From: Octopus vulgaris
Taxonomy: Eukaryota
Reading direction: 5' to 3'
DNA: 64,000 bases
Assembly (NCBI GenBank): GCA_951406725.2
Contig: OX597822.1
Span: 84,568,001-84,632,000, forward strand
The stretch's first letter is position 1; each line of letters begins with the position of its first letter. Positions 7,024-58,515 of the stretch are shown one piece after another. The translations under genes were made by a program, and so were the position numbers. The notes beneath the pieces were generated by a model. That model had not been told where the DNA came from, did no database searches, and saw only the letters and a program-made list of their open reading frames with translations.

Positions 7024-7180
7024 TAAAAGTAATATGTGACAATTATTCGGTAGTCATGATAAAACTCGGAGTTTTATCATGACTACAGAATAATTGTCAC
7101 ATATTACTTTTAAAGATAAATTCCTCTATTTACATAATATCGAGGTCTCTTTCATTCTTTTGTTGTCTTACCATTTTTTA
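7024..7180 (+). mobile_element. 89-bp hairpin (7024-7112) plus tail; fold-back copy of the family at 58330-58515
   Basis: Palindrome centred on 7068 with one mismatch; right arm and tail match 58411-58510; follows (TA)n. Confidence 0.8.
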
Positions 7181-7234
7181 TCTCTCTCTCTCTCTCTCTC
7201 TCTCTCTCTCTCTATATATATATATATATATATG

Positions 7235-7480
7235 TAATGGACTCTCCCGTCGAAGATGACATGTGAGAGTTCAGCTTTTGCCGAACGACTTGCACAAATG
7301 ACTAGTTTATAGTGTTCAAATGTTCATGCTGTACATTAGTTCATTCTCCCCAGCAAATCGAACAGGTGCACTGTGTACTATGCGTCAGGTGTGGAAGCGA
7401 CGACAGGGCAACGTAAGATGATGTGTTTTGGTCAAGTCTACAACGCATCACCCGGTCTAGGAATTGAAATCACGATACAA
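7235..7480 (-). mobile_element. Decayed tRNA-derived SINE (family C-like)
   Basis: Similarity by eye to the head and core of 27330-27668 and 57340-57550. Confidence 0.45.
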
Positions 7481-8584
7481 GTATTAGAACCAAATTTTAT
7501 ATAAAGCCAATTTTACGGCCTCCTCCGAAACTTAATTTATACATTATGTCTTAAATGCTACAAATATGGTGAGAATTATATAGTCCCTACAAGTATGTTA
7601 CTTAAAACACAGATGAATGGTTACCAACAACCAATACGTGATGCTTACACCAGAAAAAAATTACTTAAGCGAACATTGAAATTTATGTAAAGCAATTCCC
7701 CCACTAAATTTAGATTAGTGCCATTTTCCCAGCATGTAGAAAATACAGCAATAAAGAAATAACGAAGCAACATTGTTATTGAGAAATATAGAACTAGTTA
7801 ATAAATCGATAGTTAATAATGGCACCTGTTCAGTATTTATGAAAATATATTTGTCCTCTGTTTAGGAGTACTTAAAGAAATAACGTTACCTTCCACTTTA
7901 CTTAGTGTATAACTTTAGGTTAGTGTTACAAATTTTTGCCGTATGGTATACTTTAGTTGAATAATGACAGCACTTACACATGAAAAGAAAAATTTTAATC
8001 CATAAACAAAAATAGCAAATATTTTAAATTAAAAATATCAATATCTCTGAAAATATATTCTTTCCAATCTTTATTAATATTTTAACGTGCATAGATTTTT
8101 CATCTCTTGTTACCAAGCGTTTAATTAGGAAGGAAACTTCTCATCGGTTCCCCATACTATGTTTTAGCTGTAGACTCACGCAATAATTATGTGCATCACA
8201 ATAATTATCAATTATTAGAAGTGAAACTTGAATGGAATAATGCATTTTGGTCTAATTTGGTTAATTACAATATGAAAGGAATTGTACATTTTCAAAATTA
8301 TTTTCCCTATACAATTAATATGTATACATACATACATACATACATACATACATACATATATATATATATATATATATATATATATATATATATATATATA
8401 CATACATATATATATATATATATATATATATATATATACACATATATATATATACATATATATATATATATATATATATATATATGTAAATATACATACA
8501 TACATGTATATATATATATATATATATATATATATATATATATATATATATATACATACATACATACATATATACATACATAAT

Positions 8585-10031
8585 AACTTAGAATAACTTA
8601 GAAAGGTCTTGGCCAGTATTGGCCCAGGCCATGTCTAACTTAATAGCACCACCTGGCGAAGTCTTTCAATTCAGGATTTGGGCACCGAGGCCCATTCGAG
8701 CAGAGAGTTATTGTTTGCGGAGACATATCCGGGTGTGGGTGGTTTGTCCGGGACTGTTTGAAGGAATTTGTCCAAAGACTTCTTGAAATTTGTGTGGTCA
8801 GTTTCTGTTTTGACGTGTCCTAGTGTAATGTTGAAGAGAGCGGGTCCAATTGAGGTGAAATAATTGTGCCGTATTGTCGTTATGTGATGCGATTTAGATT
8901 TTTGTTGTGGACAGATGGCACGTGGTCCAAGCCTTGGATGTATTTTGAAGGTGATGCCAACATCATTCGGACAGTGCTGATGGAATATTTTCCACATCAT
9001 ACAGATAATGTAGCGTTCATGGCGTCGTTGGAGTGAATACAGTTTCAGCTTCTCTAGTCTACCCCAGTAGTCAAGGTCTGACATGCCATCTATCTTTTTT
9101 GTGATTGACCTTTGGGGAACTTCAATTCTCATAATATTTTGTTTTGTGTATGGAGATCACAGTGGACAGCAGTATTCAAGGTGGGGTCGGGCAAAAGTGG
9201 AGAAGAGAAGGATAATAGTGTGGGAATCTCTCGACTGGAAGGTTCTGAGAATCCAGGAGCACATTCTGCAGGCCATGTCAACTTTGCTGCTTATATGTGT
9301 AGCCCAGCTTATGTTGTTGTCCACTGTTACTCCCAAGTCTCTGATGTTGTTGGACGTCATGAGAATTTCTCCAGAAGGAAGGGAGTATGGGAGTTTCAGA
9401 GGTCCTCCCTTCCAAAGTGGATCAGTTCGAAATTGTCTTCGTTTAGCAACATGTTGTTCTTTTCCGCCCATTGGACAACAGCCAACAGTCTGACTGAAGG
9501 CTTATTCGGTCATCCACGCCATTGATGACCTTCTGGAGCTTGGAATCATCAGCGAAGGTTCTGATGTTACTGTGTTTGATGGTGTCAGTAATATCATTTA
9601 TGTAGATGATGAAGAGAAGTGGGACCAACACAGTGCCTTGTGGGACACCACTGCTGACTTTGGCTGGGCTGGATTTGACTCCTTCGACTACAACATGTTG
9701 GGTTCTGTTAGACAGGAAGCACTTGATCCACTGCAGCAGCTTTCCAGTGACACCAATATTGGACAGCTTTCTCAAAAGGATCTTATGATCAACCCTGTCA
9801 AAGGCCTTGTTGAAATCAAGGTAGATGACATCAGTGTTGGAACCCTTTCCCAAGGCTCTCAAAATGTTATCAAAATGTTGCAGTAGCTGCGTCAGGCAAT
9901 CTCTTCCATTACGGAATCCATGCTGGTTGGAGTTCAGCATATTATGACTCTCAAGGAAGTGAGTCATACGCGATCTCAGCACTCTCTCAAATACCTTAAT
10001 GATATGAGAGGTGAGTGAGATTGGACAATTA
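8585..10031 (-). mobile_element. 5'-truncated CR1/L2-group LINE (RT and C-terminus), frameshifted
   Basis: ORFs 9443-9982 (QHGFR, YLDFNKAFDRV, SGVPQGTVL, FADDSKL), 9157-9471 (RDLGV, RPHLEYC) and 8671-9132 (LYSLQRR, FKKSLD); flanked by TA-rich microsatellites. Confidence 0.93.
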
Positions 10032-11699
10032 ATATGTATATATATATATTAATATGTATATATATATATATATATATATATATATATATATATATATATA
10101 TATATATATATATATCAATATCTATCTATCTATCTATCTATCTATCTATCTATCTATCTATCTATCTATCTATCTATCTATCTATCTATCTAGACACACA
10201 CATATATACATATATATATTTCTTAATCGTGAAATACAATATATATATATGCATATGTATATAAATATACATACATATATGTGTATGTACGTATATATAT
10301 ATATATATATATATATATATATATATATATATATATACACATGTATATATACATATATCAGTAACAGACTGATAGACGCTGTTATTTATATAAATGGGGA
10401 ACAGCTTTTCTTTCGGATGTTTTTCTTGGAAGAAATCATTTGCTCTAGTTTCCATTTTATCGGAAGGAATTTTCATATTTCCTTATTTAACATTTGAAAC
10501 AGGAATACTGACACACATGCGCAGGCATACATGCACAAACATATACATACGTACCCACCACATATATATGCATACATAATACATACATACATGCACATGT
10601 ACACACACTCACACACACACACATATATATATATATTCACACATACACACATATGTGTACATATACATGTAAATATTCTGTAAATATATCTATTTATCTC
10701 TCTGTTGTATATATATATATATATATATATATATATATATATGTGTGTGTGTGTGTGTGTGTGTGTGTGTGTGTGTGAATGTGTGTGTATGTGTGTATGC
10801 TTGTGTGTGCGCGCATGTTTGTGTGTGTGTATGTGTGTATGTCTATATGTGCATACATATACTACACACACACACACATATGTATATACACATGTATATT
10901 ATATACATATACTCCATATATTCATGTTCATATATGTATATATGTATATGTATATATATATATATATATATATATATATATATATATATATGTGTGTGTG
11001 TGTGTGTGTGTGTGTGTGTGTGTGTGTGTGTGTGCTTATATGTATGTATACAGACAGACACATAGACACACGTATAGTTATTGTGAGACACATCGACCCT
11101 CTGGTGTACGTCTGTATGTTTGACGGGAAAACCTCGATGGATTAGGAAGACGCAATTTAGCAGAGTAAGTGAAGCATTCTCCATTTCGCCTAATTGGTGT
11201 AAAGGGGAAACACGAAGGAGATGAAATGTTTGCACAGTAAGGAGAGAATTCCACATGTCCACCATTAATGTATGTGTCTCATTAATTGGAACACACTTTA
11301 TCTCTCTAGGATTAGGAAACAAGTTTTTTTCCGTTGTGCTGAAATGTTTTCGCATTTCACGATTAGGACTTTTTGAAGCTGAAATACTGAAAAAGAATAA
11401 TTTTTCGCTTCATCTTTATTTCTGTCTTTCACTACAATTAAACTTTCTCGTTATTGCTGTTGGTGTTTAAACATCAGCTCCGTCTGGTTCTTGTAGTCTT
11501 ATAATTAAAGCTTCCTTGTAATGCATATTCTATTTTTTGTGTAAGTACATCATGGATTATATTGTTCAGTGATCTGTCTGTTATAATATGGTAGTGTCGA
11601 TTATTAGGTGGATTAGACTGCTTTATCTAGCTGTTTCAGCGACAACGTAGAGTTCCTTTTTTTTTAAACTGTTCTATGTTTAATTCTAAATTTGTAAAA

Positions 11700-57339: not shown

Positions 57340-57550
57340 CCCTCATTGATCCCGTTACCTGGCTTCCATGGCATATAAGTGGTCGAGATTACAAAACTGC
57401 CCCTGGATGGCACGCCAGTCTATCGCAGGGTTAGTCATTTACAGCTGAGTGGCCAACGTCAAAATGAAGCGAAGAACACAACGCACCATACTCTCTGGGA
57501 ATCGAAACAACGACCATTAGTCTAACACTAAAACCACTTGGCCAAGCATC
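57340..57550 (-). mobile_element. Decayed SINE with family C core
   Basis: CATTTACAGCTGAGTGG core; GGGAATCGAAAC B-box complement. Confidence 0.6.
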
Positions 57551-57644
57551 TTCACGAAATATAAACGCAAAATTCACAGACCTTTATAGAACATGGTTGT
57601 GCGCGGTTGCGTTGTTTCATATATAATTTTTATTGTCATATAAA

Positions 57645-57888
57645 GGAGCGGCGAGCTGGCAGAATCGTTAGCACGCCAGGCGAAATGCTTAGCGGTATTT
57701 CGTCTGCCGCTGCGTTCAGTGTTCAAATTCCGCCTAGGTTGACTTTGCCTTTCATCCTTTCGGGGTCGATAAATTAAGTACCAGTTACACACTAGGGTCG
57801 ATTTAATCGACTTAATCTCTTTGTCTGTCCTTGTTTGTCCCCTCAATGTTTACTCCACCCCCTGTGGGCAATAAATAAATAAATAAAT
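57645..57888 (+). mobile_element. Full-length SINE family A
   Basis: GGCGAGCTGGCAGAATCG...GTTCAAATTCC...(AAAT)n tail. Confidence 0.92.
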
Positions 57889-58329
57889 AGTTATTGTCAT
57901 AAAGAAACAATACATGTTTATGCAACGTATATCGCGCATTGTGTGTATTTCTGAAATGTAGAACAATGTATATTTATAAGATATACACTGCAGCAGCAAT
58001 GTGTTTATGTAGAAGCAAACAACAAGGCAACTGCCCTCTCCAAACAGCGCTGGTTTATGTAAACGGATTAGAAATGTGTAAGGCATTTTGGCGAATGTGT
58101 AGGTGAGCATGTGTGTATTTCAAGTGAGGGTGGATGAGTTTATACACATAGGCACATGTACGTAGGTGTTCGGGCGCGCATGTGTATGTATGGATATGCG
58201 CACTTACGCGATTACTATGACCATTTTTACTCACTTGCCTTTACTCCCTCCTCTTACTTAGCGGTCACTCTAATAGCTCTTTTGTTTTAATAACAGTCAA
58301 TCACACAGTAATTTCCCTTTGTTATAACG

Positions 58330-58515
58330 GTCATTTTCATAGCATTTTTTTTCGATGGCCCGATAACCGAAGAGATGCTGGTGTAGGTTTCTGCCCGACA
58401 TCCGAAACACGGAGTTTTATCATGGCTACGAATAAGTGTCACACATATTTATATATATAAGTTCCTCTATTTACATAATATCTTTCATTCTTTTGTTGTC
58501 TTGCCTTTTCTATTA
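58330..58515 (+). mobile_element. PLE-like 3' end with HHR-like motif (58362-58421), ending in (TA)n
   Basis: GATAA-CCGAAGA-GATG...CATC-C-GAAAC-ACGGA-GTT-TTATC. Confidence 0.7.

Follow-up and report, generated by a model that had tools for sequence, protein, structure and literature searches.

The 64-kb stretch of Octopus vulgaris DNA analysed here (hereafter the window; contig OX597822.1 of a 2.8-Gb, 227-contig assembly) is rich in microsatellites and carries inverted-repeat insertions of nine families, all of which are, judged by their sequences, 3' ends of Penelope-like elements (PLEs) joined head to head. Self-BLAST of the window, with simple repeats masked first, recovered inverted pairs at 7031, 12254, 19822, 32316, 40285, 43879 and 53839, in agreement with the preliminary description of this stretch, which had counted at least nine such insertions and placed these seven at 7024, 12175, 19817, 32304, 40277, 43810 and 53768; the one that it placed at 40972 is a decayed pair split by a short interspersed element (SINE), and what it read as one insertion (46968/50294) is two separate two-armed copies of a single family, H. 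Further inverted pairs at 47174 and 55915 lie beyond its list. In most copies only one arm ends in an unpaired tail (the tail arm), and the other is tail-less. The copies of the nine families are as follows, with a strand given where one was assigned:

7024..7180: family A, 3' end of a Hydra-type PLE; tail-less arm left, tail arm right with a tail of about 63 nt
12175..12959: family B, Hydra-type PLE with a 3' untranslated region (UTR) of about 1.7 kb; non-coding, tail of about 80 nt, left tail arm reaching 465 nt and tail-less arm 401 nt
19813..20206: family C, non-coding hammerhead unit repeated in tandem every 361 nt; each arm extends into the tail, and the copy begins just 3' of the cleavage site and is without a hammerhead
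32304..34093: family D, a young PLE with coding capacity and Neptune/Nematis-type motifs; the hairpin is perfect, with (TA)n on both sides, its arms, each reaching 928 nt, turn at a palindrome of 6 nt, and the right one ends in a tail of 54 nt
33164..33355, plus strand (mirror 32988-33179 on the minus strand): final 64 codons for the GIY-YIG endonuclease of family D, 97% identical to the family open reading frame (ORF)
40272..40945: family E, a Hydra-type PLE, young and coding; hairpin close to perfect, with (TA)n on both sides, all 3' UTR, both arms about 389 nt, 112-115-nt tail on the right
40973..41641: family F, old tandem hammerhead unit of about 342-354 nt; decayed two-armed copy, its hammerhead split by the SINE at about 41182-41418
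43798..44166: family G, 484-nt tandem hammerhead unit; left tail arm 161 nt, right tail-less arm 290 nt, tail 81 nt
46965..47557: family H, copy 1, SINE-like and hammerhead-bearing; short tail arm left, longer tail-less arm right, no (TA)n, interrupted by a hairpin of long interspersed element (LINE) sequence
50294..50720: family H, copy 2; the left arm is tail-less and of full length, the right one bears the tail and has an internal deletion, target duplication of about 9 nt seen by eye (tails of both H copies, 27-49 nt)
53752..54149: family I, tandem hammerhead unit of 340-357 nt; the left arm is long and tail-less, the right one has a deletion and a 44-nt tail, core mutated, target duplication of about 9-11 nt seen by eye

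Mapping of the arms on the natural arms of each family placed the 3' ends outward in the window elements of all nine families, as the preliminary description had stated, and (TA)n adjoins at least one end in seven of the nine, against a background of 5.4% per side; no (TA)n adjoins the ends of 46965 and 50294 (family H) or of 53752 (family I). Tails are one-sided, as had been described, in every element except that at 19817, where tail sequence occurs on both arms, and their lengths span 27-115 nt rather than about 50-120. The family D hairpin is itself flanked by a near-identical direct duplication (31972-32278 and 34279-34585), of which a third, partial copy lies at 34680-34741.

The nine families comprise four of truncated coding PLEs, four of tandem hammerhead units with periods of 340-490 nt, and the SINE-like family H, with hundreds to thousands of candidates per family across the genome; several families are non-autonomous, in agreement with the preliminary description, but four of the nine consist of 5'-truncated copies of coding PLEs. 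The arms of the coding families continue into ORFs with reverse transcriptase (RT) and GIY-YIG domains or into endonuclease C-termini, which upholds the PLE origin suggested earlier. Family D has open frames of 1163 aa (locus L131) and 1312 aa (L134) with RT motifs and GIY-YIG, a homologue that carries RVT_1 and GIY-YIG, and an Octopus vulgaris protein 99% identical to its ORF; family E has RT and endonuclease frames in L137. An atlas search gave GIY-YIG leads for both, and the full GIY-YIG domain of D in L131 matched Pfam at E 3.7e-4, below the cut-off; Pfam searches of the whole D and E ORFs returned nothing at E 0.01, and a PDB sequence search gave nothing useful. The family A arm is contiguous with a Hydra-type endonuclease C-terminus in L091 and in all 12 of 12 loci an endonuclease C-terminus precedes the family B arm; these two families are tied to coding sequence by the endonuclease C-terminus, and to the Hydra type by tblastn similarity. 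Two window elements had been thought to retain GIY-YIG C-terminal coding; tblastn with the D and E proteins found a coding match in the window only at 32304 (64 aa, 97%). An endonuclease-like peptide considered in the arms of 12175 had no tblastn match and was discarded, the region being 3' UTR.

Assignment to the PLEs is based on domain order, motifs and anatomy. The L137 translation of E has the CxCX5C linker and the CxxC and CxH motifs but no CCHH, which is the definition of the Hydra clade in the available text of PMC8557442, and L131 (D) has a readable CX2-5CxxC linker and CCHH, motifs that do not separate Neptune from Nematis. The anatomy of PLEs is present as well, with partial tandems forming pseudo-long terminal repeats (pLTRs; L134 and L260), an adjacent inverted truncated copy and a one-sided tail. 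Both PLE ORFs contain long asparagine-rich inserts (L131, 3377-6865; L137, 7021-8157), of a kind described for rotifer Penelope elements in the text available of PMC3846280.

Families C, F, G and I, with tandem periods of 361, 342-354, 484 and 340-357 nt and longest stop-free frames of 75-101 aa, are retrozyme-like non-coding tandem units with a predicted ribozyme motif. A young head-to-head array of a 359-nt hammerhead unit in L309 (2106-4768), with TA runs on both sides, consists of two units ending tail-less on the left and five units ending with a tail on the right. The head of family H has A/B-box-like motifs by eye; as to a tRNA origin, ARAGORN found no gene in the window and Rfam no tRNA match in two copies.

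How the arms are paired was determined chiefly in family D, whose ends were collected in positional order by exact patterns in which the end is joined to a TA run. Genome-wide, 2,334 tail-less and 1,560 tail ends are so joined. Among the 100 tail-less and 83 tail ends listed on contig C1 up to 194 Mb, all 33 outward-facing pairs within 10 kb consist of one tail and one tail-less end, with no like-with-like pair among them; their median span is 509 nt, and 18 are 600 nt or less. In family H, 13 of 24 insertions are two-armed, each again with one tail and one tail-less arm. If two separate RNA-protein complexes, each with its own RNA, primed the two sides of a break independently, about half of the pairs would be like with like, against none of 33 in D, and that explanation has in our judgement only a small chance of being right; it would allow arms to overlap without strand displacement, and could account both for the tail-tail pairs of family C and for a locus (L436, at about 1500-1730) at which a 48-nt D tail-less arm is joined head to head with an E-type tail arm between TA runs. 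The E-type arm is 87% identical to the window copy, and L436 could represent either priming on two templates or a young D arm that landed in an older E copy.

The reach of the arms was compared in 60 D loci, reduced to 51 distinct insertions by merging nine duplicates by hand, of which 31 were resolved as two-armed (in three of them the partner's outer end lies beyond the locus); the initial E and D samples were query-biased and are left out of size and symmetry counts. The tail-less arm reaches further in 21 of the 31, the arms are equal in five, and the tail arm reaches further in five; in six, the tail arm is 13-32 nt long, less than the 54-nt tail, and no sequence is common to both arms. 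Similar imbalance is seen in family E (L138, L140, L146, L286, L293 and L305, with tail arms of only 15-17 nt in L292 and L304) and in the window copies of G, H (copy 1) and I. These figures bear directly on the fold-back of truncated cDNA that had been proposed for the window elements, in which a tail-primed cDNA stalls and then serves as its own primer, the second arm being copied as far as a set position that leaves out the tail (self-priming is proposed in the available text of PMC3846280). Under such a route the tail-less arm could not exceed the tail arm in length, and the fixed stop is left without a reason; the route is refuted as the main one in D, and is unlikely to be the main one in general. 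Self-priming may serve as the joining step in a minority of copies, those with equal arms: turns lie on short palindromes at 7024, 32304 and 40277, the arms of five of the 31 D insertions are equal in reach, and the turns of a further family, J, gather at one palindrome. A LINE hairpin within family H has a junction of 3 self-complementary nt, by eye.

Three features lie outside the first list:

15470..15588, plus strand: family J, single arm; most J copies in the rest of the genome are tiny and two-armed
47135..47525: LINE 3' ends paired head to head, (TAAC)n tails outward, within a family H copy; the non-PLE control
58086..58517, plus strand: family A, second copy, a single 443-nt arm with tail that adjoins (TA)n, hammerhead core mutated

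The LINE, whose RVT_1 domain was matched at E 3.8e-32 (Pfam) and which is by its motifs presumably of CR1 type, is a young family and is two-armed in one of 40 scored copies. Two other hammerhead-bearing families of the window are single-armed in 24 of 28 and 25 of 25 flank copies (arms shorter than 28 nt would escape this count). Four hammerhead-like short 3' ends in the window, of two families (959-1085, 29248-29393, 43401-43542 and 55284-55449), are single-armed both there and in almost every flank copy. The insertions do not form a hairpin system of their own.

The claim that a tiny non-coding hairpin is the dominant product holds in part. Short products are the commonest, since 21 of the 31 two-armed D insertions are 600 nt or less, and therefore non-coding, and about 19 of 29 J insertions are tiny two-armed units by eye; symmetric hairpins are a minority (five of 31 in D). 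In J, 25 of 29 insertions extend no more than about 50 nt upstream of the hammerhead core and four go further; most arms (L379-L408, and 15470-15588 in the window) end 5-50 nt upstream of it, with their turn at a CTAG palindrome, and no parent ORF was found. Arm ends also cluster in D, at 267-284 nt in seven of the 51 insertions.

In families D, E, C, G and H the junction between the arms varies from copy to copy while the outer ends are fixed, and the arms run on into RT and GIY-YIG ORFs or into tandem units. Fixed palindromic elements copied whole, whether similar to miniature inverted-repeat transposable elements (MITEs) or hairpin retro-units, are thus very unlikely. A recurrent centre in six of the eight two-armed flank copies of J would suit such elements, and J has varied junctions and longer parents too. 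The same explanation may be invited by an old hairpin with transposase-like frame remnants at 55863-56480 (and 29453-29836), which is probably DNA-transposon derived, presumably mariner-like, and had no match in Pfam and PDB searches. A MITE or foldback DNA transposon was likewise rejected for the nine families, which have neither a fixed interior nor symmetric termini, their junctions varying and their ends differing by the tail. Chimeric inverted reads, or another artefact of assembly or amplification, might be suspected from the 99-100% identity of the arms at 32304 and 40277, and are extremely unlikely: family-specific fixed ends recur at thousands of sites with junctions that differ between loci, old copies have arms diverged to 70-87% identity, later insertions are nested inside the elements, and an 80-nt contig of run X2 bridges the centre at 40551 (40506-40585) with no differences.

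The scars are probably ordinary PLE insertions: once a (TA)n target is cut, its two strands would both serve as primers for reverse transcription, from two fixed sites on the RNA, and the cDNA ends would then be joined head to head. The GIY-YIG endonuclease would cut both target strands, one of which would prime at the tail end and the second from a site 27-115 nt upstream, at a distance fixed for each family; both cDNAs would end early, and their 3' ends would be joined, often at microhomologies of 2-7 nt or at short palindromes. A tail-primed cDNA that stopped before the second site would yield a plain 5' inversion with a small deletion, and one that passed it would yield a duplicated overlap resembling a hairpin; the hairpins fit the subset of insertions in which the two cDNAs overlap, a case that would call for strand displacement if a single RNA is copied, or else for a complex with two RNAs. 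The tandem hammerhead units and the SINE-like family H likely use the PLE machinery in trans. Overlaps of 2-7 nt occur at 14 of 38 junctions (40 examined, two unparsed), against 16% by chance. One D insertion (L266, G000:C1:62864700-62871500, at 1458-1950) has between its arms 493 nt of a host coding stretch, presumably dynein heavy chain-like by its motif; the stretch ends the tail-less arm, in the polarity of that arm, and is 100% identical to one block at C1:69170262-69170754.

The nearest experimental parallel is the Poseidon PLE of the green anole (Frangieh et al. 2024, PMC11167929), a lizard element that in vitro cuts and extends both strands of an AT-rich target, starts reverse transcription at two sites bounding the tail, uses uncleaved RNA (ribozyme cleavage is not needed) and is predicted to act as a dimer; its tail reads in frame into the ORF's beginning, as is also seen in family D. 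The use of one strand per site is not reported there, and the strict pairing and non-overlapping arms described above are genomic observations.

Several observations weigh against priming from two fixed sites, or are explained by it incompletely. In the Poseidon experiments the start site is alike on both strands, which leaves the strict pairing unexplained (PMC11167929). No overlap or extra bases occur at 21 of the 38 junctions, and the arm-reach sample of 51 D insertions includes 13 ends whose partner was not found, three that are interrupted and four off the locus edge. Family C is looser (30 rows), with three tail-tail loci, the window copy among them, and one locus tail-less on both sides. 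The D and E-type arms joined in L436 cannot come from one RNA, and the source of the host stretch in L266 is one uninterrupted block, so that an RNA template for it is not proven. Equal-reach hairpins on palindromes (the five D copies, the three window elements and many J copies) suit self-priming equally well.

A more specific version of two-site priming is offered tentatively. One PLE complex may prime the two strands asymmetrically, one strand for each fixed site on a single RNA, which would bring the tail, the tiny hairpins and the inverted pseudo-LTR under one explanation; retrozymes and family H may integrate likewise from linear RNA, and the smallest hairpins may be run-off copies at the 5' ends of promoter-proximal transcripts, an idea suggested by the D arm ends at 267-284 nt and the J ends just upstream of the ribozyme.

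The hammerhead core that most window elements had been said to carry is intact in few of them: the exact core CTGANGA...GAAA...NTH with stems I and III has four matches in the window (12841+, 40711+/40391- and 43965+), in three of the nine elements. The predicted enrichment over shuffled controls holds, as 100 block shuffles of the window gave a mean of 0.12 matches and a maximum of 1. In the remaining window copies the hammerhead is mutated, halved or cut off, though the families carry the motif; the core is absent from the 7024 copy because the turn falls within the palindromic stem III. The intact motifs are:

12835..12922, plus strand: type I hammerhead motif, exact core and self-complementary stem III, in the family B copy; no Rfam hammerhead match
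40705..40795, plus strand (mirror 40307-40397 on the minus strand): type I hammerhead motif, exact core and palindromic stem III, in the family E copy
43959-44017: intact hammerhead motif in the tail-less arm of the family G copy

Rfam Hammerhead_1 matched the E motif with 19.4 bits, under the gathering score of 34 (E 0.025), and Rfam gave no hammerhead match for B or H. Across family loci, counted as rows of which some are two views of one place, the exact core occurs in A (20/25), B (12/25), E (30/30), G (6/20), H (19/25) and I (12/20), where at most 0.2 would be expected by chance, and is absent from C (0/25), D (0/25), F (0/15) and the LINE (0/25). The C core reads TTGATAA (U3:A8) in 21 of 28 contexts, and an anchored pattern found the D core as CTGATGC (CUGAUGC in RNA); U3-A8 covariation in hammerheads, and dimer-type PLE hammerheads with a self-complementary stem III like those found here, are described in the available text of PMC4209133. 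Minimum-energy folds gave no hammerhead fold, with z near 0 except in H, and the 150 matches listed of 405 in a whole-window Rfam search are microRNA (miRNA)-type matches driven by microsatellites or hairpins, under the gathering score. The earliest descriptors were too strict, finding at most the 40277 pair; a loose one, run on 400 kb chosen by position, gave 29 matches, 20 of them near inverted pairs covering 28% of bases, and was dropped as an enrichment figure, several matches being false positives. Ribozyme cleavage was rejected as the setter of the turn point in C, since the cleavage site, 235 nt from the tail end, shows no clustering of arm reaches. During insertion the ribozyme is probably just carried along.

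Elsewhere in the window, 20640-21092 contains another inverted pair (81%) and 59740-60775 a 190-nt exact direct repeat.

In twin priming by L1, both ends of the target are reportedly used as primers, giving a 5'-inverted insertion joined by short homology. In the elements described here, by contrast, the second site has a constant position near the 3' end, and the cDNAs often overlap by hundreds to thousands of bases. A search of the open-access literature, with subscription papers and supplements outside its scope, found no paper that ties the pLTRs of PLEs to twin priming. The insertion unit of endonuclease-positive (EN+) PLEs is described as a 5'-truncated copy with an adjacent inverted copy and a one-sided tail (Craig et al. 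2021, PMC8557442; Arkhipova et al. 2013, PMC3846280), and the window elements resemble it in their head-to-head arms, outward 3' ends, tail at one end, heavy 5' truncation, (TA)n and hammerhead near the 3' end. Tails are 27-115 nt here compared with 30-40 nt in those descriptions, and counts of the longer arm and of end pairing, as given here, were not found in the available text of either paper (PMC8557442, PMC3846280). Hydra-clade elements are generally shorter than 3 kb (PMC8557442, as far as available), whereas E arms here exceed 4 kb; 3' UTRs of about 1.7 kb (family B) and tails of up to 115 nt also set the present families apart. Families C, F, G and I resemble non-LTR retrozymes, for which a PLE origin is discussed (Cervera and de la Pena 2020, PMC7229834; Li et al. 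2026, 10.64898/2026.07.22.740005, both in the text available), being non-coding tandem units of 340-490 nt with one predicted type I hammerhead each; they differ in showing the inverted arms and tail of PLEs, the word 'inverted' not occurring in the main text of PMC7229834. An octopus repeat annotation of 2026 lists 31 recently active PLE families, and its available text makes no mention of hammerheads or palindromes (PMC13282606).

The elements are therefore not a new class: their anatomy, the (TA)n bias, the dimer-type hammerheads and the two RT start sites are already published. The pairing statistics are new here, and the supplements of PMC11167929 (Fig. S2) and PMC8557442 (files S1 and S2) may hold tallies or these families. 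Mechanistic work on insertions with inverted repeats and tails is called for in PMC8557442, in the part available, and the very young, high-copy family D offers a clean in vivo read-out, each insertion having one tail and one tail-less end and either arm being the longer; this read-out favours two-ended priming over self-priming, and the family supplies a natural intact ORF. Many short palindromes in the octopus genome are PLE scars, which annotators could misfile as MITEs, SINEs or miRNA hairpins.

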